NCBI GenBank assembly: GCA_028707635.1 | Contig: JAQWAQ010000004.1 | Location: 2,548-66,547 of the forward strand | Origin: Negativicutes bacterium | GTDB taxonomy: Bacteria; Bacillota; Negativicutes; JAAYSF01 | DNA length: 64,000 bases | Reading direction: 5' to 3' | Shown: piece by piece, positions 5,105 to 62,655 of the stretch | Layout: each line of letters opens with the position of its first letter | How positions within the stretch are numbered: position 1 is the first letter of the stretch | Made by a program: the position numbers and the translations under genes | The notes under the pieces: generated by a model | Told to the model about the DNA's origin: nothing | The model's input: the letters and a program-made list of their open reading frames with translations, nothing else | Databases searched by the model: none

Positions 5105-5653
5105 ATGAACAACAAATTATATGCCATTATTGGTCCGCCCGGATCAGGTAAAACTACAATTGTAAAAAGATTAAAAGACTTTGGAATTCCCGTTCTGGTA
5201 AGCCATACAACAAGACCGCCAAAAAGCAATGAAAAAGCTGGCCATGACTATTATTTTGTCGATCAAACAACATTTTCGAATATGGTTTTTCTGGAAAAGG
5301 TCCTCTATGCAAACAATTTATATGGTCTAACAAAAGACGAAGTCTTAAATAAAGTCCATAACAATCCTATATCTATTGTTGAAATTGAACGAAATGGATT
5401 AGAGCAGCTAAAAAATTTACTTGGAGTACGTTTAGAATCTATTTATATTCTTGTGGATAAAAATACGCTTATCGAGCGCTACGTAGATCAAGGCGAAAAA
5501 TTCGACTCTATCAAACAACGCATTAAATTTGTCGAGGAAAACAATGAGTTTAATAATTGGCAAATTGCCGACCATGTTGTAAAAAACACCAACACAATAG
5601 ATATAACTGTACGTCAAATTTTAGCCATCATGGGTATGACAACAATAAAGTGA
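5105..5653 (+). CDS. Guanylate kinase-like P-loop kinase (divergent GMP kinase family)
   Basis: 182 aa with the Walker A motif GPPGSGKTT and the guanylate-kinase HTTRPP motif. Sits in an AT-rich stretch with RBS GGAGGGAT upstream. Stand-alone, and not the housekeeping gmk context. Confidence 0.65.
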   Translation: MNNKLYAIIGPPGSGKTTIVKRLKDFGIPVLVSHTTRPPKSNEKAGHDYYFVDQTTFSNMVFLEKVLYANNLYGLTKDEVLNKVHNNPISIVEIERNGLEQLKNLLGVRLESIYILVDKNTLIERYVDQGEKFDSIKQRIKFVEENNEFNNWQIADHVVKNTNTIDITVRQILAIMGMTTIK

Positions 5654-7156: not shown

Positions 7157-8425
7157 CTATAACAGAATTAACATGGCTACAATGGTAGCAATTGTCATGC
7201 CTGGGGCGTTCCGTTTGGCCAGTTCCATTGGACTTACGCCTGCAATTGTTGCGCAAATAATGCCTGCGCCATTAATTGGGGACATGGTACGACCGATGGC
7301 GCCACTAAGAGCGGCAATACTCCCCATGTTGACTACGTCCAACCCAAACTTAGCTGCATGAGGTGTCACGGCTTCATTAAAGGCAAAAGCAGCTGCATCG
7401 CCTGATCCGGAAATAATCGCCAGTGCCCACGGACCAAAGGTAGCTGCATATTTTACAACCTCCGAAGAATTAATCATAGACTTAATAAAGGTATCAACAA
7501 GACCGATCGACTGCATCCCGCCAACGAATACCCCCGCGGCTATGATAATACCCATAATTTGACCATAGGCTGAACCCATCCCATCAAAAAATCCTTTGGT
7601 AATCTTAGTCGGGCTTTTGCGAGTCACAATTAAAGCAATAATTGCCCCAATCAACATTGCATGGGGAACACCCAGCTTTTTTAATCCAGGTATCCAACCA
7701 GACGCACCGAGCACCAAAAGGAAAACCGGAATAATTGGTACGATGGCAAAAAGGACATTGGTTTGAGGGGTAGTTTGCACGTCAAGGGCAGTGGTTGCAG
7801 CCGTTTCTGCAGCCACATAGCCTTTATCTTCCTTTAGAATTTTAGCAACAATAGTTATACTTAGCGCGGCCACTATGCCTGCGGCAATGTCTGCTGTTGC
7901 ATGAACAGAAATGACATCCATGACAGGCATGTTTGCAAGCTTAGCTACGAATGGATTGTGTGACAACCCGGGATTTAGCATACTACCAAAGGTGCCTGCC
8001 CACACTGCCGCCCCGGCAGTCGCCGGATGTATGCCAGCAGAAATCAGGATTGGGATAAATATCGCACCAACAGCTGCCGCACAGCCAGCGGCACTGGGAA
8101 GGGCGACATTAATGGCAAAAGTAGCCAAAGTGGCAGCAGGTATCAAAATTGGTCTAACTTTTGTCAGGCCATTGGCCACCAAGTTAATTAAATGTCGATC
8201 ACATTCGGTCACCTTCATGACATATGCAAAACCCATTACCGAGCAAATAGCGGCAATTAGCCCAGCTGTAGTCATACTTTTTGCAAAAGCATCAAATGCG
8301 GCCAGAGGATTCCCAGCCAAAGTCGCCATTAGAACTCCAGCACCGAAAAGTACCATACGGGATTCATACTGCTTAACTAAACAATAAACAGTAACCAGCA
8401 AAATTATTACACCAATATACACCAT
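7157..8425 (-). CDS. DcuC-family anaerobic C4-dicarboxylate-type transporter
   Basis: 422-aa polytopic membrane protein. The C-terminal region is collinear with E. coli DcuC (SGxAxFxAFxE...GRTxSPxxG...SPxExxKR). Confidence 0.6.
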   Translation of the reverse strand: MVYIGVIILLVTVYCLVKQYESRMVLFGAGVLMATLAGNPLAAFDAFAKSMTTAGLIAAICSVMGFAYVMKVTECDRHLINLVANGLTKVRPILIPAATLATFAINVALPSAAGCAAAVGAIFIPILISAGIHPATAGAAVWAGTFGSMLNPGLSHNPFVAKLANMPVMDVISVHATADIAAGIVAALSITIVAKILKEDKGYVAAETAATTALDVQTTPQTNVLFAIVPIIPVFLLVLGASGWIPGLKKLGVPHAMLIGAIIALIVTRKSPTKITKGFFDGMGSAYGQIMGIIIAAGVFVGGMQSIGLVDTFIKSMINSSEVVKYAATFGPWALAIISGSGDAAAFAFNEAVTPHAAKFGLDVVNMGSIAALSGAIGRTMSPINGAGIICATIAGVSPMELAKRNAPGMTIATIVAMLILL

Positions 8426-8673
8426 ATAAATCCCCCCTTATATTTAGCTAGATTGCGCCATGATTAAGTCGGCATTCACACCTCCCTCCTTGCAACGTTC
8501 TAGTTAAAAGCAACATCAACGATCTTCTAAAGTAACCTAGAACGGTTTTAAAATATATATTATTGAATTATTTCAGTCATTACAGGGGAAAATCCTGTCT
8601 ATTTTTAAAATATTTTAAATCTTCTAATCAATTTGCATGATAAGCTTCATCTGCAGACCTCCCTATAAACGAC

Positions 8674-8700
8674 AAAAAACCCGCGAAATTCGCAGGTTCT
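8674..8700 (-). terminator. Terminator of the AT-rich orphan gene
   Basis: Minus-strand hairpin CCTGCGAATTTCGCGGG followed by TTTTTTGT. Confidence 0.45.
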
Positions 8701-8809
8701 CGGTTTTCTGAAATTGTTGTTTACCCCATACTCCAGACCAAGGTGTCGATAACCCCGTCCCCTTGACACCCTGGTCTTTGACACCCGGCAGCTTCCCATC
8801 CAAGCATTA

Positions 8810-9394
8810 TCAGGTTGATGATGCTTTTTTACAAAAGTCTAAGCATTTTTCATAGTCATATTTATTTTCATGAGTTTTCAAAATACCGTAAAATGGTTCC
8901 GCAACCCTAATTAATAAGCCGCTTCCATATAGTTCACGGTGATCCGGAATGTACTTCCCATTCTTTATAGCATCCGCCATAAAATGCGTAGGTACGTAGT
9001 TATTGTCAATTATTTCAGTAGCAGAAGCTCCCTCAAGATGGTCGTGTTTATCTGTATATAATTCAAAAATCGTTTCATGCGAAAACCCATAATCAAGCCT
9101 CCTGAATTTATCGTCATTATTTTGATGTCTATAGGAATATAACGTATAAGAAAGTTTGCCTAATATATTTTTAAATGATTTTTCTTTATACGTTCCTTCT
9201 TTAGCTACAATGAGTTCTTTATACTTTGCTTCAACATAGGGAATCAAGGCGGACATTTCACTATTATTATCATTCTTAACTGCTAAAAATGAAGCGATAA
9301 ACAAATGCTTTTTTTTCAACGGAACAGAAGCCAAATTGATAATAAAAGTTTCTACTAAATCCGTATTAATGATAATGTTTGTGTTACTTACCAT
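8810..9394 (-). CDS. Hypothetical protein with no recognisable domain, in an AT-rich islet
   Basis: 194-aa ORF with RBS GGGGGGAACT upstream and its own terminator. Base composition is markedly more AT-rich than the flanking dnaB and DcuC genes. Confidence 0.55.
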   Translation of the reverse strand: MVSNTNIIINTDLVETFIINLASVPLKKKHLFIASFLAVKNDNNSEMSALIPYVEAKYKELIVAKEGTYKEKSFKNILGKLSYTLYSYRHQNNDDKFRRLDYGFSHETIFELYTDKHDHLEGASATEIIDNNYVPTHFMADAIKNGKYIPDHRELYGSGLLIRVAEPFYGILKTHENKYDYEKCLDFCKKASST

Positions 9395-9621
9395 TGTAAG
9401 TTCCCCCCGATAATATTTTGCGTCACAATCTATATATGGCTACCTTCTATTTGAAAACGATAAAGTCCTTCATGCTATAAACTGCTAAGTGTTTTTCTTC
9501 CCTAATATGTTATTTACACGCAATACTAGCCGGTCAATCCAAATTTCATATCCGATTAAGCTCACGTATACCTCCAAACTTTAATTTTCATAAGTATAGC
9601 ACTACTTCCTCAAGGTTATAT

Positions 9622-9660
9622 ACGAAAATAGAATCACTATCAAGCGATAGTGATTCTATT
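9622..9660. terminator. Perfect 15-bp inverted repeat between the orphan gene and dnaB; a possible bidirectional terminator
   Basis: AATAGAATCACTATC aagc GATAGTGATTCTATT, lying downstream of the dnaB stop on the minus strand. Confidence 0.45.
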
Positions 9661-9694
9661 TTAATTTCAATTTATGGGTAAATCAACAACAATA

Positions 9695-11029
9695 CTAAGC
9701 ATCCATCCGTGACAAATCGGCGAATTTGGTGAACTGTTTGTGGAAAAACAGCTGGACCGTATCAACAGGGCCGTTACGATGCTTTGCGATGATGACGTCA
9801 GTGATATTTTTATTCTCGGTATCCGGGTTATAGTAATCTTCACGATAAAGAAAGGCGACAATGTCAGCATCTTGCTCTAGTGAACCTGATTCTCTAAGAT
9901 CGCTTAGCATTGGTTTTTTCACTTGGCGCGATTCAACACCACGGCTTAGCTGGGATAATGCAATGACCGGGACGCCCAATTCACGGGCCAAACCTTTGAG
10001 TGAGCGGGAAATTTCGGAAATTTCTTGCTGCCGGTTTTCACTTCCCTTGTTTCTTCCTGATCCTTGCATCAATTGCAAATAATCGATAATGATAAGCTGC
10101 AAGTCATGTTCGATTTTGAGCCGCCGCGCTTTGGCCCTCATCTCAAGGACAGTTATACCGGCCGTATCATCGATGAAAATACCGGCCGATGACAATCTGT
10201 CAGCTGCATTGACCAACTTTTGCCAATCTTTACCTTCCAGGTCACCTACTCTAAGACGCTGCGAATCAATCGGGGCTTCTGAGCACAGCATCCGCTGGAC
10301 AAGCTGTTCTTTCGACATTTCCAGACTGAAAAAGGCAACTGACTTCTTTTCCCTAATAGCAATATGGGTAGCAATATTGAGCACGAAAGCTGTTTTACCC
10401 ATACTCGGCCGGGCGGCAATGAGAATCAAGTCTGACGGCTGGAGGCCTGATGTTAGGCGATCAAAGTCTTTAAACCCTGATGGAAGACCAGTGATGCCGC
10501 CCTTCGATTCATACAAACCTTGGATTCGATCAAACGCTTCGAAAATAATACTTTTAATCGGCGTAAACTCTTTGCCAACTTTACGCTTTGATACATCCAG
10601 AATCATTTTTTCAGCCGAATCCAAAATAGAGCCAACTTCTTCACTGGCTTCATAGCCGAGTCCGGCAATATTGGTAGCGGCATTAATCAGCTGGCGCAGC
10701 AGCGATTTTTCTTCAACAATCCGGGCATGATAGATAACATTAGCCGCCGTCGGAACGCTGTTCGCCAATGAAGTTATGTATGCAATACCCCCAGCGCTTT
10801 CCAGCCTATCGTCTTTGCGCAAAAATTCCGTCACTGTAACCATATCAACGGCATCGTTTTTATTAAATAAATCAACAGCCGCATTATAGATAAGCCGGTG
10901 CGCTTCACGGTAAAAATCTTCCTGATGTAAAAATTCGGTCACCTTGGAGATGGCTTCGCGCTCAATGAGCATGGCACCAAGGACGGCCTGTTCGGCCTCG
11001 ACACTCTGCGGTGGTACTCTATCTAACAA
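9695..11029 (-). CDS. dnaB: Replicative DNA helicase DnaB (Bacillus DnaC)
   Basis: 444 aa with the DnaB N-terminal domain (SVEAEQAVLGAML) and the RecA-like domain with Walker A GARPSMGKTAF. Confidence 0.95.
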   Translation of the reverse strand: MLDRVPPQSVEAEQAVLGAMLIEREAISKVTEFLHQEDFYREAHRLIYNAAVDLFNKNDAVDMVTVTEFLRKDDRLESAGGIAYITSLANSVPTAANVIYHARIVEEKSLLRQLINAATNIAGLGYEASEEVGSILDSAEKMILDVSKRKVGKEFTPIKSIIFEAFDRIQGLYESKGGITGLPSGFKDFDRLTSGLQPSDLILIAARPSMGKTAFVLNIATHIAIREKKSVAFFSLEMSKEQLVQRMLCSEAPIDSQRLRVGDLEGKDWQKLVNAADRLSSAGIFIDDTAGITVLEMRAKARRLKIEHDLQLIIIDYLQLMQGSGRNKGSENRQQEISEISRSLKGLARELGVPVIALSQLSRGVESRQVKKPMLSDLRESGSLEQDADIVAFLYREDYYNPDTENKNITDVIIAKHRNGPVDTVQLFFHKQFTKFADLSRMDA

Positions 11030-34270: not shown

Positions 34271-34675
34271 TATTAGCCTTTTGTCCTTATTGCAAACACA
34301 TTTATTTACAACAACTTAATTATAGAAACGAATTGTTATACTGTCAATATGCATAATAAAATAAAGTTTATTCTGATAAATCCCGTAATTATTGGGTTAT
34401 CTAGCCAGGCTTAGCTTTGTATATTGTATATTTATTCATCTGTTGTCCTTTACACCAGCAGGGCCGCAATGTGTAAACTGTTAAGTCGATTCCTTAGTTC
34501 CACTATCGTGTCATAATATTTTTTTAAAAACGCCTTTATTCACACCATCATGTATTGAATTGTTTTTCAGTATACATGCATATCTTCCACTTTTATCTGA
34601 AGAGCAAGCCGCTATATGAATATAATTGCTTCTTTTGAACCATAATGGTAATAACTGACTATAGAACAGGAGCTT

Positions 34676-35254
34676 GTGATGCTGAATAATCTATTAAATT
34701 TCCCAAAATTGAGCTCAGATCTAAAATTCAATATTCATCAACCGCAAACTGTCAATCATATTGCTTTACATGTATCAACCATCCTTCAGCGCGCTACTCA
34801 AGCGGGCCACGAGATTGTGATTGTCTGTATTGGAACCGATCGCTCAACAGGCGACTCTTTGGGTCCTCTTGCCGGCAGTAAAATGCTTGAACTCAATACC
34901 GCCCCCCACATTTATGGCACCCTCGATAATCCTGTCCATGCTACAAATTTAAATGATGTGCTAAAGGAAATTAATGCTGCCTTTACAACTCCATACATCT
35001 TGGCAATTGATGCCTGCCTGGGTAAATTAGAAAGCGTTGGCTGCGTTTCCATTGGCCTAGGTCCCCTTAGACCAGGTGCTGCCGTGAACAAAGACTTACC
35101 ACCTGTTGGCAATGCTTATATAACTGGCATTGTCAATGTAGGTGGCTTTATGGAACACCTTGTTCTCCAAAGCACCCGCCTTAACTTAGTCATAAAAATG
35201 GCTGACACGATCGCCCTTGGCATCACGTCAGCTGTAAAAAACCAGATACACTAA
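34676..35254 (+). CDS. yyaC: Sporulation protein YyaC (GPR-like endopeptidase family, DUF1256)
   Basis: CIGTDRSTGDSLGPL motif and overall YyaC architecture. Origin-proximal location as in B. subtilis. Confidence 0.8.
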   Translation: MMLNNLLNFPKLSSDLKFNIHQPQTVNHIALHVSTILQRATQAGHEIVIVCIGTDRSTGDSLGPLAGSKMLELNTAPHIYGTLDNPVHATNLNDVLKEINAAFTTPYILAIDACLGKLESVGCVSIGLGPLRPGAAVNKDLPPVGNAYITGIVNVGGFMEHLVLQSTRLNLVIKMADTIALGITSAVKNQIH

Positions 35255-51515: not shown

Positions 51516-51863
51516 CTACTTAGCCAAAAGTCGAGCCTTGCCACACAAATCAATAAAAGCCTTGCTGGCCACAATCGAATTAGCTTTCACCATTGCCTGA
51601 CGGCCCATAAATACCAGATCAACATTCTGAATAAGCAAATGCTTATTTAACCGATAAACTTCACGCAAAATACGCTTTACCCTATTGCGAACCACAGCAT
51701 TGCCGAGCCGCTTGCCAGCTGCAAAACCAATGTGCCGCTGGCTGTTTTTTTGCGGTAAAACGTATATAACCATCATTTTATTGGAATATGATTTCCCGGC
51801 ACGGTATATTGCCTGGAAATTTTTGTTCTTTTTTAGGATATGCTGCTTAGAAAGTTTATACAT
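51516..51863 (-). CDS. rnpA: RNase P protein component
   Basis: RNR motif region (VRNRVKRILRE). Start taken at the MYKLSK ATG, which has upstream RBS GGATGGAAG. The longer ORF overlaps rpmH. Confidence 0.85.
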   Translation of the reverse strand: MYKLSKQHILKKNKNFQAIYRAGKSYSNKMMVIYVLPQKNSQRHIGFAAGKRLGNAVVRNRVKRILREVYRLNKHLLIQNVDLVFMGRQAMVKANSIVASKAFIDLCGKARLLAK

Positions 51864-51915
51864 TATATGCTTCCATCCCTGCATGGAAAAAATAGGCCAC
51901 TTTGTGGGCGGCCTA

Positions 51916-52050
51916 TTATGCTGATAATTTTTTTCTTCCTCTAGCACGTCTTTTCTGTAAAACAAGACGGCCACCTTTTGTTTTCATACGTTCACGGAAA
52001 CCATGAGTTCTCTTTTTCCATAATGTATTTGGTTGATACGTACGTTTCAT
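51916..52050 (-). CDS. rpmH: 50S ribosomal protein L34
   Basis: Hand-translated 44-aa [47 protein letters not shown], with RBS GGAGGTG at 8-nt spacing. Absent from the ORF track because it is under 60 aa. Confidence 0.9.
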
Positions 52051-52149
52051 ATCTAAAACACCTCCTCGCTTAAAGCGGAACTTTCCATATTAAAAATTAT
52101 TTTTAACTAATAAAATTATAGACTAGTCGATTGATAGTGTCAAGGAAAT

Positions 52150-52536
52150 TGCGCTTTCTAATGACTAAAAGCTGTGGATAATTTTGTCGCGCATTATTAC
52201 GTGGGGTAAAAAACTGTTGATAACCCTACTACCTTTTGTTAATATAGACATGATAGATATCCACAAATTAAGCACATTTATCTGTTTATACACATAAAAC
52301 CAATACTTATTAACAAAATAACCTATTTATACACAGAGTTATCCACATTATCTAAAAACTTCTCCTTTAATGCAATTACAAGGTATTGTTTTAGACAAAA
52401 ACCTGATTTTGGCTTTTTTTTTCGCCAAAATTCCTTTTTTGAGTAAAGTTATACACACCTGTTGATAACAATGTGGATAACTTATGTTGAGTTATTATTG
52501 AAATTGTTGATATTTGGATCTGAAAGGACGGACACT
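52150..52536. promoter_or_regulatory. oriC part 1 / dnaA promoter region with a DnaA-box cluster and AT-rich tract
   Basis: Perfect TTATCCACA boxes at about 52183-52191 (minus strand), 52339-52347 (plus) and 52472-52480 (minus). Near-consensus boxes TGTTGATAA (52215, 52461) and ATATCCACA (52256). T-rich tract at 52400-52440. Confidence 0.8.
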
Positions 52537-53976
52537 ATGGAAACCATCCAACTTGAGGCCCTATGGGAGCAAATCATGAATCATCTTGAGCAAGAACTAT
52601 CAAGTCTTACATATAATACTTGGCTCAAACCAATGGTTCCGCTTTGCATAACGAAAACTACTTTTGAGATTGGTACTTCAAAAAAATTTATCAAGGAATG
52701 GGTGGAATCCAGATATTTCTCAATCATTCAAAACACCGTCCAAAATATTACAAAGCAGCCATTAACTTTAATTATTACTAATATGGAGGAAGATGAGACA
52801 ATTCCTCCTATCGACATTCCACAAGAACAACCCGCAGGTAATCAACCGAATGAAACATCACAACAGTTATTCACTAATATTCCGGCGCCAATTCGACCAG
52901 TGTACAAACCTGAACCCTCCTCACAAAATAATTTTTCATCAGATGAACCTCTTGCTATTTTAAATCCCAAATATATTTTTGAGACCTTTGTTATCGGCAA
53001 TGCAAACCGCTTTGCTCATGCGGCCTCATTAGCCGTAGCTGAAGCACCTGCCCAAGTCTATAACCCATTTTTTATTTATGGCGGAGTAGGCCTTGGTAAA
53101 ACCCATCTCATGCATGCCATTGGCCATCGGATTCTAAAAACTCACCCTCATCTTAGAGTTGTCTATATTTCAAGTGAAAAATTCACAAATGAACTTATCA
53201 ATTCTATTCGGGATGGAAATCCTGAAAGCTTTCGGCAAAAATACCGTAATGTCGACGTTCTTCTCGTCGATGATATTCAGTTCTTATCGAAAAAAGAACA
53301 TACTCAAGAAGAGTTTTTCCACACCTTCAACACTCTCCACGAAGCGAATAAACAGATTATTATTTCAAGCGACCGTCCGCCTCGTGATATTCAGACCTTA
53401 GAAGACCGGCTGCGTTCCCGCTTTGAATGGGGTCTTATTACCGATATTCAGCCACCTGACCTTGAAACACGGATTGCTATTTTACGGAAAAAGGCTATGA
53501 TTGAGAACCTTAATGTCCCTAATGATGTCATGGTGTTTATTGCCAGCCGAATTGATAACAATATTCGAGAGCTAGAGGGTGCTTTAATAAGAGTAATGGC
53601 ATACGCATCATTAACAAAGCAATCAATTGATATTGATCTGGCAACCGAAGCACTTAAGGATATCTTTCCAAATGGTCGACCTAAAGAAATAACAATGGAA
53701 CTTATCCAGGAGGTTGTATCCTCGTATTTTAAAATTCGTATTGATGACTTACTTGCTAAAAAGCGAACCAGAAACGTAACTTATCCACGACAAATTGCTA
53801 TGTACCTATGCCGGGAAATGACTGAGACCTCCTTACCACGAATCGGCGAAATGTTTGGCGGGCGAGATCACACAACAGTTATCCACGCCCACGACAAGAT
53901 TAATCGCGAACGAGCCGAAGATATTAAACTAAGTAATACGATTAAAGAATTAATCAAAAGGATAGAAAGTGTATAA
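52537..53976 (+). CDS. dnaA: Chromosomal replication initiator DnaA
   Basis: AAA+ domain Walker [11 protein letters not shown] and the C-terminal DNA-binding domain signature. Start at [10 protein letters not shown], with RBS AGGACGGA. The ORF extends upstream to 52462. Confidence 0.95.
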
Positions 53977-54234
53977 ATCTGTTAGTATCTCAGGTATAAA
54001 GTTGTAAACAATATGTTGATAAACTTATCCCAGTAAATTTGTGTTAATATGTGTATAACCCATGGTATAGTTATCTACATATTATTCACATTACCGCCTG
54101 TTGATAACTATGTGTCGACAGCGCTTATCAACATATTAACAGGCCCTACGACTATTACGACTACTTTTTATATTTTAACTACTTATAATAATAATATACC
54201 CCCTACCCCCAAAACCGAACCGGAGGTCGATGTA
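53977..54234. promoter_or_regulatory. oriC part 2 (dnaA-dnaN intergenic DnaA boxes plus an AT-rich DNA-unwinding element)
   Basis: Boxes TGTTGATAA (about 54013 and 54096), TTATCAACA (about 54124), AGTTATCTACA (about 54069), and the AT-rich run ACTTATAATAATAATATAC (54181-54200). Confidence 0.7.
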
Positions 54235-55344
54235 ATGAAAATCTTCTGTAGTAAAGAATTGCTAAATCAAGCTGTTCAAACAGTTCAAAAAGCTGTTGCC
54301 ACCAAAACACAGTTACCTATATTAACTGGTATTTACTTAGCAGCAAACGACAATAAACTAGAACTTCATGCAACTGACTATGAAATCGGAATTAAATGCA
54401 TCATTGATGCTCAAGTCGAAATACCTGGCACTGTTGTCATATCCGGTCGCTATTTTCAAGAAATGGTTCGTAAATTACCTGGTGATACAATTGAAATTTC
54501 ATCATCAACTGAAGATAGAACAATAAAAATAACGGCAAATTCTGCTCAATTTAATCTCCTTAGTCTGCCTGTTGAAGAATTTCCAGTTTTGAAGCAACTA
54601 ACAAGCGATAGTTTTATGATTGTAAAAGATAATGTTTTAAAAGAACTGATCAAAAAAACCGTTTTTGCGTGCGCTAACGATGAAGCCAGGCCGATATTTA
54701 CAGGCTGTTTACTTGAATCTAACGAAAAAGATATCAAAATGGTGGCGACAAATACTCACCGTCTGGCTCTCAAAAAAGATAGCAGTGAACAATCATTAAA
54801 TAATCTAAAAATGATTATTCCAGCCAAAATACTCCATGAATTAGCGCGTATTATGAATTCGGAAACACCAATTGATATAAAGATATACTGGTTAAAAAAT
54901 CAGGTAGCTTTTGAATTTGAGAATATTTATATCATATCGAGATTGATTGAAGGGCAGTTCCCTGACTACAACAAAGTAATCCCGCCAAGTTTTGCTACAA
55001 ATGTACTCATAAACACGAAACAATTACTTGATGCTGTTGAAAGAGTTGCTTTAATGGCCAGAGATAATGATTACAATGTTATTAAACTGGCTTTTAAAAC
55101 TGATTCAATTACCATAACATCAAACAACCCGGATATTGGCAAAGCATGTGAGGTTGTCGATGCTGCGCTTGAGGGAAATGAAGTTGATATCGCTTTTAAT
55201 GTCAAATATATTTCTGATATTCTCAAGAATATTGATAGTGAAAATTTGAAATTTTCACTTAACACTCCATTGAGCCCAGCTAGTATTAGACCTATTGATG
55301 ACGAAAATTACATATATATCGTTACACCGGTTAGGACAAACTAA
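54235..55344 (+). CDS. dnaN: DNA polymerase III beta sliding clamp
   Basis: MKIFCSKELLNQAVQTVQKAV is a canonical DnaN start. RBS GGAGGT is 7 nt upstream. The ORF's upstream extension from 54049 covers oriC and is rejected. Confidence 0.95.
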   Translation: MKIFCSKELLNQAVQTVQKAVATKTQLPILTGIYLAANDNKLELHATDYEIGIKCIIDAQVEIPGTVVISGRYFQEMVRKLPGDTIEISSSTEDRTIKITANSAQFNLLSLPVEEFPVLKQLTSDSFMIVKDNVLKELIKKTVFACANDEARPIFTGCLLESNEKDIKMVATNTHRLALKKDSSEQSLNNLKMIIPAKILHELARIMNSETPIDIKIYWLKNQVAFEFENIYIISRLIEGQFPDYNKVIPPSFATNVLINTKQLLDAVERVALMARDNDYNVIKLAFKTDSITITSNNPDIGKACEVVDAALEGNEVDIAFNVKYISDILKNIDSENLKFSLNTPLSPASIRPIDDENYIYIVTPVRTN

Positions 55345-55346
55345 AT

Positions 55347-55473
55347 ATAAAGTGAGACTTGATTCAGATGGAGTTTTAACTCCACCTGAATCCTAGTCGA
55401 ACCGTATCCAGGGACTTAGCCGCAAAGACTCCTGCTTTTACAAGCGGGAGTCTTAGCGCGGGTTAGTCATCGG
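55347..55473 (+). repeat. Copy B of the structured intergenic repeat
   Basis: Begins 2 nt after the dnaN stop: ATAAAGTGAGACTTGATTCAGATGGAGTTTTAACTCCACCTGAATCCTAGTCGAACCGTATCCAGGGACTTAGCCGC...GCGGGTTAGTCATCGG, with a nested 3' hairpin AGACTCC...GGAGTCT. Confidence 0.7.
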
Positions 55474-55498
55474 AAAAACATTTCATGGAGGTTATTCT

Positions 55499-55714
55499 AT
55501 GCAAGAAATAACCATATCAACTCCTTATATCAATTTAGATCAGCTTTTAAAGTGGGCGGGTATCATTGATACTGGAGGACAAATTAAACCAATGTTGGAA
55601 GATGGGTTGATTAAATTAAATCGTCTCACCGTAAGTCAACGACGCAAAAAAATCTATCCTGGCGATATTATTGATATTGAAGGTGTCGGCACATACAAAA
55701 TCATTGCTGAGTAA
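55499..55714 (+). CDS. yaaA: S4-domain RNA-binding protein YaaA
   Basis: 71-aa S4 fold protein between dnaN and recF, as in Bacillus. Confidence 0.8.
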   Translation: MQEITISTPYINLDQLLKWAGIIDTGGQIKPMLEDGLIKLNRLTVSQRRKKIYPGDIIDIEGVGTYKIIAE

Positions 55715-55723
55715 GGTGCTATT

Positions 55724-56830
55724 ATGAAGGTTAAAAACCTTAGTCTTTATAACTACCGTAATTATGTAAAGTTGAATTTAGAATTTAAACATAATCTTAA
55801 TATTTTTGTCGGCCAGAACGCCCAAGGGAAGACAAATATTTTAGAATCTATCTATGTCGGTGCCATGGGACGCTCTCACCGGACAAATACTGATCAAGAG
55901 CTTATTCATTGGTATCAGCCCGGCGGTTCCATTAATATGACATTTACTAGGCAGGATATTGAAAATAAATTATCATTTAAATTCATATCTGACCAAAATA
56001 AGGAAATAATATTAAATGGCCAAACGATTAAAGTTCGCGACTTGATCGGGCAGCTCAATGCCGTCATGTTTTCGCCTGAAGACTTGATGTTGATTAAAGG
56101 CGCACCAGTCGGACGACGGAAGTTTCTTGACAGTGAAATATCGCAGGCTAACCCTGCTTATTATCGCAATTTACTGCAATATAATCGGATCGTAGCGCAG
56201 CGTAACAATCTATTAAAAAAGATCCGTGAATGTAAAGCAAGACCGGAAATGCTTGATACTTGGGATGCACAAATCGCTAGTTCGGCTGCTATTATTGTAA
56301 ATAAGCGTCAGGATGCATTAAAAAAGCTCACTATGTTAGCCAATCTTATGCATCGGAAAATTACAGCCAGTCGGGAAAATCTTACAATAACCTATTTTCA
56401 ATGTGGTCTTTGTCAGCCTGTTAATCATATTGAAGAGTGGTACTTGCAACAGATGGCAAATAACCGCCATATTGATATTGCCCGCGGTAGTACAAGCGTA
56501 GGTCCCCATCGTGATGATTTAATTTTTAATGTAAATGGAATTAATTTAAGAAATTTCGGTTCGCAGGGTCAGCAACGTACTGGCGTGTTAGCCTTAAAGC
56601 TCGCCGAAATTGAATTTATAAAATCAGAAACAGGCGAATATCCCGTACTGCTCTTAGATGACGTGATGAGTGAACTTGATGCTTCGCGCCGGGAGCAGTT
56701 ATTATCATTTATAAAAGATCGCATTCAAACATTTATCACTGCGACCGAACCAAAGTATTTTTCTGAACATAAAATGGGCCATTATTATTCTGTTGTTGAA
56801 GGAAAAGTTGAACAATTTGATTGGAAGTGA
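55724..56830 (+). CDS. recF: DNA replication and repair protein RecF
   Basis: Walker A GQNAQGKTN, the SMC-like signature and Walker B LLLDDVMSELD. Confidence 0.95.
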   Translation: MKVKNLSLYNYRNYVKLNLEFKHNLNIFVGQNAQGKTNILESIYVGAMGRSHRTNTDQELIHWYQPGGSINMTFTRQDIENKLSFKFISDQNKEIILNGQTIKVRDLIGQLNAVMFSPEDLMLIKGAPVGRRKFLDSEISQANPAYYRNLLQYNRIVAQRNNLLKKIRECKARPEMLDTWDAQIASSAAIIVNKRQDALKKLTMLANLMHRKITASRENLTITYFQCGLCQPVNHIEEWYLQQMANNRHIDIARGSTSVGPHRDDLIFNVNGINLRNFGSQGQQRTGVLALKLAEIEFIKSETGEYPVLLLDDVMSELDASRREQLLSFIKDRIQTFITATEPKYFSEHKMGHYYSVVEGKVEQFDWK

Positions 56831-57687
56831 CGGCTGTGCATAAATTAAGTGAACTTTTGCCGTTGACAATAAAAAAGCTTGGCATTACTAAGCGGTATAA
56901 TTCTGAATCGGCGATAATCCATTGGCGGGAAATTGTCGGTGATAAAATAGCCAATCATTCTTATCCTTTATCGGTGCAGCGAGATTTATTATTAGTGGCT
57001 GTAGGTAATCCAGTCTGGGGACACCATCTTTCGATGATGAAACAGGACATTATTAATAAAATCAATGCCTTTATTGGAGATAATTTAATCAGAGATATCA
57101 GGTTTCAAGCAGGATATTTAAAAGATAACCAGAATTTAGAACATAATGGTGAAATTTGCCGTAATGAACAAAAAGCCTATCATGTTAAGTTGGACGAGAC
57201 CGAAATAAAAATAGCAAATGAGCTTGTCAGTACAATAAGTAATGAGGAGCTTCGCAATAAGATAAATCGAATTATAAAAAAAGATTTTACGCTTAAGAAG
57301 ATAAGGCTTAACAATAAGTGGCATAAATGTGACCAATGCAATACATTATGTCCGCCTGAGGACACTCTATGCTCTACTTGTAAACTTAATCAGAAACAGC
57401 AAACCCGGCAGCAAATTTATCAACTTCTGATTGAAAATCCTTGGCTCAGGTATAGTGAGTTGACCAATTACATTAATGCCAGTTTTGACGCCTTTAAAGA
57501 GGTTAAAGAGCGTCTGATTACTGCGCTTACGGATGATCTTGCTCGCGATAATATTGATGAAATTAAAAAATTAACACTGGTCATGTTGGCTACCGGAATA
57601 AAACCGGAGCAAATAACCGATGCTGTAATAGATAATACTCTTAAAAGATTCAGGAGGAAGAAACATGTTTCTGCATTTAGGGGCTGA
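56821..57687 (+). CDS. DciA-like DUF721 protein with a long C-terminal extension containing a CxxC...CxxC zinc ribbon
   Basis: The N-terminal roughly 100 aa match the DUF721/DciA pattern (W.EIVG..IA.HS.P..V....LLV.V.N..W...L......I...IN...G...I.DIRF). The C-terminus carries KWHKCDQCNTLCPPEDTLCSTCK. The recF-DUF721-gyrB position is as in Mycobacterium. Confidence 0.6.
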   Translation: MEVTAVHKLSELLPLTIKKLGITKRYNSESAIIHWREIVGDKIANHSYPLSVQRDLLLVAVGNPVWGHHLSMMKQDIINKINAFIGDNLIRDIRFQAGYLKDNQNLEHNGEICRNEQKAYHVKLDETEIKIANELVSTISNEELRNKINRIIKKDFTLKKIRLNNKWHKCDQCNTLCPPEDTLCSTCKLNQKQQTRQQIYQLLIENPWLRYSELTNYINASFDAFKEVKERLITALTDDLARDNIDEIKKLTLVMLATGIKPEQITDAVIDNTLKRFRRKKHVSAFRG

Positions 57688-59992: not shown

Positions 59993-60040
59993 GTTAAGGA
60001 GCATGGCAAATGATCATGTTCCTTAATTTTTTGTCGTTAT
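59993..60040 (+). terminator. gyrB terminator
   Basis: Hairpin AAGGAGCATG...CATGTTCCTT followed by AATTTTTTG. Confidence 0.45.
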
Positions 60041-60261
60041 ACCCATAAAGTGAAACATATATTGGATCTAATAAAAACTAGATGAGAACTTATGTTACTA
60101 TCGACGGTGAAAATGTAGGATTTAAACTTAATGAGCGTGTCAATAATCTACAGTAATGATCAAACTCCGGGATGGTAGGGCCGTTACCATTAATCCAGGT
60201 AATTTTATTTTGGAAATAATTGGTGTATGGTTAAAAGGTAGATTGAAAAAAGTGCAAATAC

Positions 60262-60290: not shown

Positions 60291-60334
60291 ATAGTAACCA
60301 GTTGTACAACTACCAATATATTACAATTAAATAC

Positions 60335-60600
60335 CTTTGAGGTAGGTGCCCTAACGGGCTTAATAGGGAAGTCCGGTGTAACGCCGGCGCGGTCCCGCCA
60401 CTGTAATGAGGAGCAAACCCATGTTATGCCACTAGGACGAAATTCTTGGGAAGGTTTGGGGGAGCGATGATCCAGAGCCAGGAGAACTGCCTATCTAACA
60501 ATCACCGTTTTATTTACCCACGCGCGATGGGGAGGGGATTTATTCATTGGAGTAATCTATCCTTCCCGGCTATTCTTATGCCGGGATTTTTATTTGCTAT
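60335..60600 (+). ncRNA. Cobalamin (AdoCbl) riboswitch with a terminator expression platform
   Basis: Conserved core GGTGCC...AATAGGGAAGTCCGGTG.AACGCCGG.GCGGTCCCGCCACTGTAA, the B12 box AGCCAGGAGAACTGCCT, then the terminator CCCGGCTATTCTTATGCCGGG followed by ATTTTTATTT. Upstream of a TonB-dependent receptor. Confidence 0.9.
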
Positions 60601-60786: not shown

Positions 60787-62655
60787 ATGAAAAACCAATT
60801 GGCGAAAATGATCTGCAGCACGTTGGCGGTAGGCTTTCTGGCCATGCCAAGCGTACTGGCGGCGGAAGAAATGATGGAATATAGTCTGGGTGAGGTCATT
60901 GTAACCGCTCAGCGCTATGAAAAGCGTAATATAGATGTGGCGGCTTCGACCGAGATTTTAACTGAAGCCGACTTACGGAACACCGGCGCCAGCAATTTGT
61001 ATGATGCGTTGCGGTTTTCGACCGGCTTGGAAATGCAACAGTATGGTACGGCAGGATCTTCCATGGGAAATATGACTAGCAAAATTGCCATTAGAGGCAA
61101 CAATGGTGGCACGTTGGTACTGATAAACGGGATGCCGCTGAATATTCGCGGTACCTATGATTTAAATGACATACAGGTTGACGACATCGAACGGGTAGAA
61201 ATTATTCGCGGTGGCGGATCAGTTTTATATGGCAGTGAAGCGACCGGCGGGGTCATCAATATCATTACCAAGAAGAAGCGCAGTAATTATTTTAAGACCG
61301 GCTGGGGCAACTACGGTCAGCAAGAGCATACTTTGAGTCTGCAAGCCGATAAGAAGCTAGGCATTGGCTATCAATATTCGGAATGGGGCAAGCGGAATAA
61401 TGTAGACTCCGAAGGGAGAAAATGGATTGGACCGGAGAACAATAGTCTGAGTATCACCTATGCATTTAATGACAAATTAGACTTTTCGTATAATCGGATT
61501 GAGTCACAATATCACTATATTACTATTAAAGATTCTAAAAAGTCCCCAGCCTCTGATATTAAACAAGATATTGATAGAAATAATGCGCAGTTATCTTATC
61601 ATGATGATGATTTTAAAGCAACGGTATATTATGTAGATCGGACACGGGAAAAAGATGCGATCGAAACCACATCAAAGAACCGTTTTGTCGATGAAGAAAA
61701 GAACAAAAATTACGGTCTTGATATGCAGAAAGCTTGGGATATTACCGCCGGAAAAGTTTTATTTGGCGGAACATTCAAGCGGGAAGAATACATACCAGAT
61801 ACAAAAGGAACAATTGTTGAGCGAGAAAATCAAGCGCGCAATAACTTTTCAGCCTATACTCAGTATGAGAAACAGGTAAGCGCTCTGAACACTTGGATTC
61901 TTAGTGCGCGTGAATCTTGGACAACTGGAGCACCAAATGCGCATAACAACACAAACTTCAGCGGCCAAGCGCAGTTTGTCCATAAGATGACTGAAAACGA
62001 AAATCTGTATGCCAGTGTGGGAGAATCCTATAAGATGCCAGATCTGCACCAGATATGGAAATCCGGCGTGAAACAATTGGAACCTCAGACCGGTAGGCAC
62101 TATGAATTGGGCTGGAAGAAAAATTCCGGTATTCATAACTGGCGGGTAGCTGTATTTAATTACAATATTGATGATAATATCAGTGCTACGTTTAATAGCA
62201 AAAAGAATGATTTTGAATATAAAAATGAAAATTTAAAAAATACCGGCATTGAATTGGAATGTACAATTAAACCCAGCCAAAATCCTTTTAGTTATCGCTA
62301 TGCGGTCAGTTATGGGAATCCGAAAACAGAAAATATCGATGCCGCGGGCGTTTCGTTAGGCTGGCAGCCTAATTTTTCCCGATGGGAAGTTAAAGGCGGC
62401 ATAACCTATCAGCAGGATAAATGGCAGGCCGCTATGAACGCTTCGTATATGGCGGATAGAGTTTTAAGCGGCATAGATAAGAAACCATATTTGCTGACAA
62501 ATTTAAATGTAAATTATGCAATGACAAAAGACCGGAGCCTTTTCCTGACGATTAATAATTTGCTTGACCGGGAGGATGTTTCCTACGCTTCAACTTCTGC
62601 TGACTACTACTTTGCGCCGATCAATTATATGATAGGATATAAAATGACATTTTAA
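60787..62655 (+). CDS. btuB: TonB-dependent outer-membrane receptor (BtuB-like cobalamin transporter)
   Basis: Signal peptide, TonB box region (GEVIVTA), plug and 22-strand barrel, with a C-terminal aromatic residue (YKMTF). Controlled by the cobalamin riboswitch. Confidence 0.85.
   Translation: MKNQLAKMICSTLAVGFLAMPSVLAAEEMMEYSLGEVIVTAQRYEKRNIDVAASTEILTEADLRNTGASNLYDALRFSTGLEMQQYGTAGSSMGNMTSKIAIRGNNGGTLVLINGMPLNIRGTYDLNDIQVDDIERVEIIRGGGSVLYGSEATGGVINIITKKKRSNYFKTGWGNYGQQEHTLSLQADKKLGIGYQYSEWGKRNNVDSEGRKWIGPENNSLSITYAFNDKLDFSYNRIESQYHYITIKDSKKSPASDIKQDIDRNNAQLSYHDDDFKATVYYVDRTREKDAIETTSKNRFVDEEKNKNYGLDMQKAWDITAGKVLFGGTFKREEYIPDTKGTIVERENQARNNFSAYTQYEKQVSALNTWILSARESWTTGAPNAHNNTNFSGQAQFVHKMTENENLYASVGESYKMPDLHQIWKSGVKQLEPQTGRHYELGWKKNSGIHNWRVAVFNYNIDDNISATFNSKKNDFEYKNENLKNTGIELECTIKPSQNPFSYRYAVSYGNPKTENIDAAGVSLGWQPNFSRWEVKGGITYQQDKWQAAMNASYMADRVLSGIDKKPYLLTNLNVNYAMTKDRSLFLTINNLLDREDVSYASTSADYYFAPINYMIGYKMTF

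Follow-up and report, generated by a model that had tools for sequence, protein, structure and literature searches.

Phage morons, reportedly described by Juhala et al. in 2000, are among the closest counterparts of the element discussed here, an AT-rich islet with a single open reading frame (ORF) of 194 amino acids (aa) at 8810..9394 on the minus strand of a 64,000-nucleotide (nt) stretch of a Negativicutes genome (contig JAQWAQ010000004.1; this whole stretch is referred to as the window). In the review of phage morons by Cumby, Davidson and Maxwell 2012 (PMC3594210), gene 15 of phage HK97 is the archetype. This first moron occupies a slot flanked by a tail gene on one side and the tape-measure gene on the other, and the known functions of morons are superinfection exclusion, toxin-antitoxin functions, restriction and virulence (PMC3594210). 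The region around the ORF, at ~8786-9684 of the window, is very probably a mobile moron-like accessory cassette. The best overall explanation, to which a probability of about 0.55 is assigned, is an acquired one-gene cassette that consists of a motif remnant, a hairpin or terminator, a 230-nt leader and the 194-aa ORF, and that is lodged 3' of dnaB.

The original prediction, made from the sequence alone, had described the islet as a single-gene accessory insertion of low GC content. The ORF at 8810-9394, which begins with an ATG, is a real gene: of 20,000 shuffled versions with its composition, not one stayed open, and the 194-codon frame is intact in four lineages despite the AT-rich sequence. 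The difference in base composition was confirmed as well, with a GC content of 0.28-0.36 over 8800-9700 versus 0.45-0.50 in dnaB and the neighbouring DcuC gene (window mean 0.435), which places the islet 10-15 points below its neighbouring genes. Paralogues of the 194-aa protein were not found within the window.

The acquisition of the gene is indicated by comparison with a more distant genome (L001), in which an 83%-identical protein is encoded directly after rpsR-...-rplI-lonC-dnaB. Sliding-window identity between the two genomes is 75-83% through dnaB to its stop codon, rises to 88-98% from 9681 to 8786 and drops to ~35%, that is, no homology, beyond this point, with the identity steps at 9684 and 8786. 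The shared module of ~0.9 kilobases (kb) therefore covers 8786..9684 on the minus strand. Its conserved upstream neighbour dnaB (9695..11029, minus strand), which encodes the replicative helicase, has a nucleotide identity of 79.2% and an amino acid identity of 94% to L001, with 225 synonymous and 26 nonsynonymous codon differences, and lonC has 76.8% and 86%, with 290 synonymous and 90 nonsynonymous differences. The corresponding values for the ORF are 92.0% and 83%, with only 9 synonymous and 33 nonsynonymous differences, and the leader, to which codon-based measures do not apply, is 92% identical. Nei-Gojobori estimates for the six pairs of four close copies of the ORF gave a synonymous divergence (dS) of 0.05-0.19 and a ratio of nonsynonymous to synonymous divergence (omega) of 0.45-1.09. 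For the flanks, lonC has a dS of 2.7 and an omega of 0.03, and the dS of dnaB is saturated, so that the synonymous divergence of the ORF is more than 20-fold below that of the flanking genes. The low dS, the raised identity and the sharp edges against the diverged flanks argue for a recent horizontal transfer of a one-gene module, which, judging from these divergences, moved between the lineages long after their core genomes had separated.

The distribution of the gene is consistent with this. The same strain was found in three other samples (L002-L004), in which the module is 99.85-100% identical. The best DnaB matches (84% aa identity) come from Pelosinus, the closest sequenced genus, where the gene order is dnaB-purA-hprK with another dnaB terminator and without the 194-aa gene. 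A tblastn search with all family members against 80 dnaB neighbourhoods from across bacteria revealed no relative either. The gene is accessory, not core. The proposal of a single-gene accessory insertion beside the conserved rplI-lonC-dnaB block is thus borne out by its absence from Pelosinus and the 80 dnaB loci, the low dS and the sharp edges, and core-conserved homologues at this position were encountered in none of these loci. The pairing with the downstream neighbours did not hold in the same way. In L001, dnaB and the module are followed by a convergent kdp operon and not by the DcuC and M20 genes. Since the L001 copy has dnaB upstream and the kdp operon downstream, the gene travels with dnaB and is not tied to the DcuC/M20 pair. 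Past the ORF stop codon, homology ends after 3 nt in L096, 6 nt in L097 and ~24 nt in L001, and the downstream flank differs in each of the four lineages (window, L001, L096 and L097). No integrase, recombinase, transposase or phage gene was found in the flanks of L001-L003.

Read along the minus strand, the module follows the dnaB stop (9695) with a degenerate motif (9688-9665), a perfect hairpin (9662-9625), the leader (9624-9395), the ORF and ~24 nt common to L001 only. The hairpin is a perfect inverted repeat (9625..9662, both strands), for which arms of 15 bp had been reported. The repeat is real, and its arms are in fact 17 bp long (9625-9641 and 9646-9662), with a loop of 4 nt and T-runs on either side. 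It begins 33 nt past the dnaB stop, folds with -21.1 kcal/mol (z -7.6; equalled by none of 200 shuffles) and has the same sequence in the window, L001 and L096. Because this position suits a dnaB terminator and T-runs are present on both strands, the hairpin is probably a bidirectional dnaB terminator that now arrives with the module, and it would also shield the ORF from dnaB read-through. An interpretation of the inverted repeat as the end of a mobile element was ruled out, as there is only one copy, located at the dnaB terminator position.

The 230-nt leader (9395..9624, minus strand) is conserved between the window and L001 at a level equal to that of the ORF, which is explained by the young age of the module. 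No RNA-structure signal was detected in it (folding z +0.78), and a search of the leader region against Rfam returned no credible family, the only match being ohsC on the hairpin with 26.8 bits versus a threshold of 50. For these two reasons, a riboswitch or structured leader was rejected. A leader peptide encoded by a 26-codon frame within the leader was also rejected as coding, because the changes relative to L001 are nearly all nonsynonymous. Candidate promoters match at the consensus level only and comprise an extended -10 element (TGcTATACT, 9602-9593) and a TTCAAA-17-TAGATT arrangement (9455-9427).

Two further expression signals had been claimed for the ORF, and both stand in part. The supposedly good ribosome binding site is a Shine-Dalgarno-like G-run (GGGGGG, 9403..9408, minus strand), 8 nt before the ATG, which, as far as can be read from the letters, is acceptable but non-canonical. 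The intrinsic terminator was recovered by a scan at 8675..8701 (minus strand) with 12 pairs followed by a T-run, and its folding energy is -16.8 kcal/mol (8701..8675, z -3.3). However, it sits 109 nt past the ORF stop codon in window-specific DNA and is not part of the shared module. Between the stop codon and this terminator lies a GC-rich hairpin whose stem measures 13 bp (AGACCAGGGTGTC...GACACCTTGGTCT; 8735..8777, minus strand), which occurs once in the window, is not present in L001, L096 or L097, and has no match in Rfam.

At its left edge, the module carries a motif, TGTCGTTnnACCCATAAAGTGAAA, that is dispersed over intergenic regions and is present here as a degenerate copy (9665..9688, minus strand). 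An exact second copy is located at 60032..60055 (plus strand), 172 nt past the gyrB stop, and these two occurrences in the window compare with none expected. There are two motif units in L096 (positions 1-46) and three to four in L001 (7645-7725, 8599-8650 and 8908-8932). The motif (TTTTTGTCGTTnnACCCATAAAGTGAAA) is found directly behind two essential genes, dnaB and gyrB, and its copy number differs between lineages. It may be a protein-binding site, a REP-like repeat or a recombination target. In L001, a 48-nt direct repeat of the motif (90% identical) brackets a module of 925 bp, and an inverted copy is found further on. These repeats could represent an att-like target duplication or the chance nearness of a dispersed repeat. 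A tandem duplicate of the module in L001 was rejected, since the similarity past the 48-nt repeat is patchy. The motif was also rejected as a module-specific att site, because the exact copy stands alone after gyrB, which marks it as a dispersed repeat; an attB-like role of this dispersed motif is possible. At the empty site after dnaB in Pelosinus, where the dnaB terminator differs, the motif is absent.

The original prediction had found no recognisable domain in the protein, and this was upheld by four libraries of hidden Markov models (HMMs) and by PDB sequences. Pfam, NCBIfam, PHROGs and PADLOC yielded no significant match to the 194-aa protein, with sub-threshold noise such as Cofilin_ADF (E 0.053) and PRK06761 (E 0.018), and no PADLOC-DB v2 family matched at E <= 10. 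Pfam searches with all 12 family members gave nothing above noise, and neither single-sequence nor profile queries matched PDB sequences. A word-indexed search of 5.8 billion proteins retrieved only four clusters of 81-100% identity, which include 'hypothetical protein SDC9_04205 [bioreactor metagenome]'. Eight distant relatives with lengths of 139-317 aa (E 2.6e-42 to 4.5e-10) came from an exhaustive HMMER search of 1.84 billion cluster representatives with a profile of the close sequences, and a metagenome scan added one further relative with 48% identity (L094). In total, the family comprises 13 sequence clusters (P0001-P0012 and L094) among ~15 billion proteins, and its members come from Bacillota (Firmicutes) or from unassigned contigs.

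Distant members with 26-48% identity retain the length and the invariant residues, which in the 12-sequence alignment are H30, L31, F36, M47, L61, F74 and F110. Near-invariant are K59, Y69, T84, Y169, C184 and C188, the last two forming C184-x3-C188 within a C-terminal KCLxxC and being the sole cysteines in most family members. The 194-aa protein is soluble, with an isoelectric point of ~6.7 in a near-neutral family and a maximum Kyte-Doolittle hydropathy of 1.33 over 19 residues. Variation is highest in residues 91-150, where 22 of 60 positions vary compared with ~20% elsewhere. These 22 account for almost half of the 48 positions that vary among the close copies, and all large indels of the family fall within residues ~91-150.

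Structure prediction depended on the distant relatives. A first AlphaFold2 (AF2) run on four close sequences was useless, with a predicted local distance difference test (pLDDT) score of 42, and was superseded by one on the 12-sequence alignment. The latter gave an alpha/beta model with a pLDDT of 84.4 and a predicted template modelling (pTM) score of 0.83, in which confidence is low only at residues 1-6 and 92-102. A Foldseek search with this pTM 0.83 model found no credible match, the best having an E-value of 0.31 and a template modelling score of 0.19 in PDB and an E-value of 1.8 in BFVD. The protein is therefore a member of a very small, undescribed family whose predicted fold has no detectable relative in PDB or BFVD, and the homology and structure comparison suggested by the original prediction led to this undescribed family only.

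In the contig pair L092/L093, the distant member P0009 is encoded together with an 88-aa ORF in the gap that separates a phage tail-region gene from the beginning of a gene for a tape-measure protein (TMP). The tail-region gene corresponds to phrog_10988 (E 2.7e-22), which adjoins the tape-measure gene in Firmicute siphophages, and the TMP is up to 90% identical to annotated TMPs. The same two flanking genes are adjacent in the related phage NatCom_11578, and 1-1.5 kb of unrelated hypothetical cargo separates them in NatCom_2329 and NatCom_28274. Because the slot is empty in one related phage and carries unrelated cargo in others, it is regarded as a cargo hotspot. In Ca. Heliusvirales phages, a 58-aa phrog_10988 gene and the tape-measure gene are 30 nt to ~1.5 kb apart (L103 3501-4680; L104 521-1665; L105 354-2001), and the cargo in this gap consists of unrelated hypothetical genes of 235-288 aa without a Pfam domain. 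The hotspot cargo of other phages was rejected as a source of family relatives, given hhalign probabilities below 1% and no Pfam match.

Other family members are likewise lone accessory genes. The homologue in L094 is a lone gene with a GC content of 0.31-0.36 among genes at 0.45-0.49, so that a low GC content of family genes is seen in three independent contexts (window, L001 and L094). It lies between a SpoIID-like gene and rnhB-ylbJ-(HlyD-like)-yggS-sepF-yggT, 30 nt upstream of rnhB and on the same strand. The L088 homologue is part of a run of small unrelated genes (UPF0158, SEC-C/DUF7309), and the L085 homologue is followed by a 65-aa Sel1-repeat protein. No conserved partner ORF was found beside the gene in the window, L001, L085, L088, L090, L092 and L094, and a toxin-antitoxin-like partner gene was rejected because the small downstream ORFs of L088, L090, L092 and L085 are mutually unrelated. 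The suggestion that the gene is defence or toxin-like could thus not be substantiated, as there is no PADLOC match, no partner gene and no toxin domain.

In P0008, the family domain is fused to a 134-aa domain that otherwise stands alone. The lone 134-aa gene (L101/L102) separates the portal gene of a prophage remnant from its terminase gene, is encoded on the opposite strand and has toxin-antitoxin pairs around it. The 134-aa proteins form an undescribed family of their own (P0013-P0032; L101 6001-6405, L102 3661-4065, L098 6001-6405). The prophage remnant around this gene is flanked by PhdYeFM-PIN and RelB-ParE pairs, and elsewhere the 134-aa family is found with an AraC regulator gene on one side and glycoside hydrolase genes on the other.

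Taken together, an acquired cassette would operate as follows. The ORF would be transcribed alone from a promoter in the leader, since the hairpin would stop read-through from dnaB. Its product would be a cytoplasmic protein with a core of conserved residues ~10-90 and ~160-194, possibly tied by a putative His30/Cys184/Cys188 metal site, and the hypervariable segment ~91-150 may recognise a variable partner. The most likely role of the protein would be one in phage-host conflict, where it could protect the carrier cell by exclusion or in an abortive-type manner, or act as a phage-derived counter-defence. This guess is based on the known functions of morons and on an omega near 0.5-1, and the occupation of a phage moron slot by one family member makes it plausible, so that a phage-conflict function is put forward tentatively. 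A more far-reaching version is improbable, namely that the protein is the first of a new family of single proteins acting in phage-host conflict (defence or counter-defence), with an unseen fold and a His/CxxxC site, on a recombinase-less ~0.9-kb cassette that inserts at a dispersed intergenic motif of ~25-48 nt via a recombinase acting in trans. Motif-targeted insertion of this kind would account both for a left junction that is identical in several lineages and for the 48-nt direct repeats of L001.

Several observations weigh against the cassette explanation and its proposed role. The phage link of the family comes from one short contig pair only (L092/L093), and the window copy is without phage genes nearby. 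Searches of 2.9 million viral contigs with the profile, P0005, P0009 and P0011, and tblastn searches of 50,697 phage records and 72,556 plasmids with the window protein and P0009, retrieved no family member. The AF2 model was built on 12 sequences, and its five models span a pLDDT of 59 to 84. The promoter of the ORF is a guess at the consensus level only. With regard to the mechanism of insertion, the 48-nt direct repeat was found in L001 only. Finally, an omega of 0.5-1.1 for the ORF fits relaxed constraint equally well.

This last point leads to the alternative of a functionless or decaying selfish ORF, that is, a recently moved block whose frame drifts under relaxed selection. The omega values among the four close copies, the divergence of the leader, which is as large as that of the ORF, and the extreme rarity of the family all speak for decay. 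Nevertheless, this explanation is unlikely, because the frame is open in all four lineages when no shuffle keeps it open, and the changes are concentrated in one segment instead of being evenly spread. Moreover, the distant members keep the length, the invariant residues and a coherent, confidently predicted fold, which requires long-term purifying selection.

Alternatively, the protein could be an orphan immunity protein that neutralises a polymorphic toxin or bacteriocin delivered by a competitor and that is retained without the toxin gene. A small, soluble, fast-evolving, low-GC and horizontally transferred gene with a hypervariable surface segment matches this description, and so do the small-gene neighbourhoods of the L088 and L085 homologues, which we take to resemble immunity-gene islands, a likeness that is only suggestive. 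However, a toxin gene or toxin domain is next to no member, no Imm-type Pfam family matches, and a literature search linked the L088 neighbours to immunity nowhere. The one mobile context that is informative belongs to a phage tail module rather than a toxin locus, and immunity is also considered an unlikely function.

In two lineages at least, and probably also in L096, the module follows directly on dnaB, and the L094 homologue is next to rnhB. These positions could indicate a replication-linked factor that modulates DnaB or another replication enzyme in the manner of phage and plasmid helicase loaders and inhibitors. This is quite improbable, given the strong hairpin or terminator between dnaB and the ORF, the lack of the gene in the 80 other dnaB loci, the unrelated contexts of other members (phage tail module, runs of small unknown genes) and the lack of similarity to known helicase-binding proteins; two replication-gene neighbours in ~8 contexts may be chance. 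A poorly annotated core or housekeeping gene of the rplI-dnaB region, as the same post-dnaB position in the window strain (L002-L004) and L001 might suggest, is effectively refuted by its absence from Pelosinus and all other dnaB loci fetched, its more than 20-fold lower dS, its GC content 10-15 points below that of its neighbours and the tiny, patchy family.

Apart from the islet, other features of the window and its relatives were observed. A lone low-GC gene (0.32-0.35 versus ~0.45 in its flanks) at 5105-5653 (plus strand) encodes a 182-aa guanylate-kinase-like P-loop protein on the strand opposite to its neighbours, an M20 peptidase gene and an amino-acid permease gene, and is possibly a second accessory islet. 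At 60327-60508 (plus strand), a cobalamin riboswitch (RF00174, 114 bits) precedes a 622-aa ORF (60787-62655), whose reading as a putative TonB-dependent outer-membrane receptor would be consistent with a diderm Negativicutes host. The oriC/dnaA region is probably represented by a low-GC patch (0.29-0.35) at ~51800-52460, where minus-strand genes give way to plus-strand genes immediately ahead of a 504-aa ORF. The 504-aa ORF is followed by ORFs in the usual positions of dnaN and recF and then by gyrB, of which only gyrB was read from its translation and the rest from gene order. dnaB and the islet are ~42 kb from this putative region and co-oriented with replication. Further stretches with a GC content below 0.35 are located at 34300-34700 and 53900-57500, the latter overlapping the ORFs of the dnaA-to-recF region. 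In the dnaB-purA intergenic region of Pelosinus baikalensis (L005, ~7618-7642), a palindromic pair of DnaA-box-like sequences (TTATCCACAGTTTGTGGATAA) is located upstream of purA.

Lone low-GC hypothetical genes are common and usually unexamined, and the dnaB islet is a clean case. A 0.9-kb one-gene block with exact edges and no mobility gene crossed between genomes with a core-gene DNA difference of ~20%, and the evidence for the recent transfer of such a recombinase-less block is unusually clean. If a role in phage-host conflict is true, a new protein family and fold would be added to this repertoire in the little-studied Negativicutes, and the locus might also show how recombinase-less cassettes target short intergenic repeats. 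If it is false, the islet is still a case of moron-type gene flow into housekeeping DNA of the chromosome, and one with well-defined limits.

Compared with known systems, the islet shares individual properties with several of them. Like the single-gene anti-phage and abortive-infection proteins covered by PADLOC, it is an accessory gene that stands alone and has expression signals of its own, of which the promoter is putative, and a patchy distribution after recent transfer. In contrast to them, it matches no model, has no recognisable enzymatic or sensor domain, is shorter than most and lies outside a defence island. Toxin-antitoxin modules differ by their conserved two-gene operon, which is lacking here. 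The immunity proteins of polymorphic toxins, including orphan genes, are likewise small, soluble, diverse, fast-evolving and mobile, frequently have a low GC content and frequently lack detectable homologues, whereas the window gene has no toxin neighbour, no Imm-type Pfam match and no secretion-system context.

Integron cassettes are similar as promoter-poor one-gene units without a recombinase and with discrete ends, and the module is bracketed by a repeat in L001. However, neither an integrase nor a cassette array was found in the flanks of L001-L003. The integron attC site is imperfect and located downstream, whereas the palindrome of the module is a perfect hairpin upstream of the ORF, and homology ends 3-24 nt past the ORF stop without a shared palindrome there. 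In addition, the motif bracketing the module in L001 also stands alone after gyrB.

The likeness to phage morons extends to a single extra gene with a GC content unlike that of its neighbours, an own terminator and horizontal spread, and the slot of P0009 is of the kind that HK97 gene 15 occupies. The gp15 protein of HK97 is a small inner-membrane protein, whereas the window protein is soluble and unrelated in sequence. The window copy agrees with morons in composition, in its terminator, although this lies outside the shared block, and in horizontal transfer. As for the promoter of its own that a moron has, the window copy offers consensus-level candidates only, and the upstream hairpin would favour independent transcription. 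Its surroundings are housekeeping DNA of the chromosome, its flanks are free of phage genes, and residence in a phage together with absence from related phages holds only for the distant P0009 (L092/L093; slot empty in NatCom_11578). Because it is not inside a phage genome, the window copy is classified as moron-like and not as a phage moron. Its kind, a horizontally acquired orphan accessory gene, is thus an ordinary one, and what is new is the protein family and its predicted fold.

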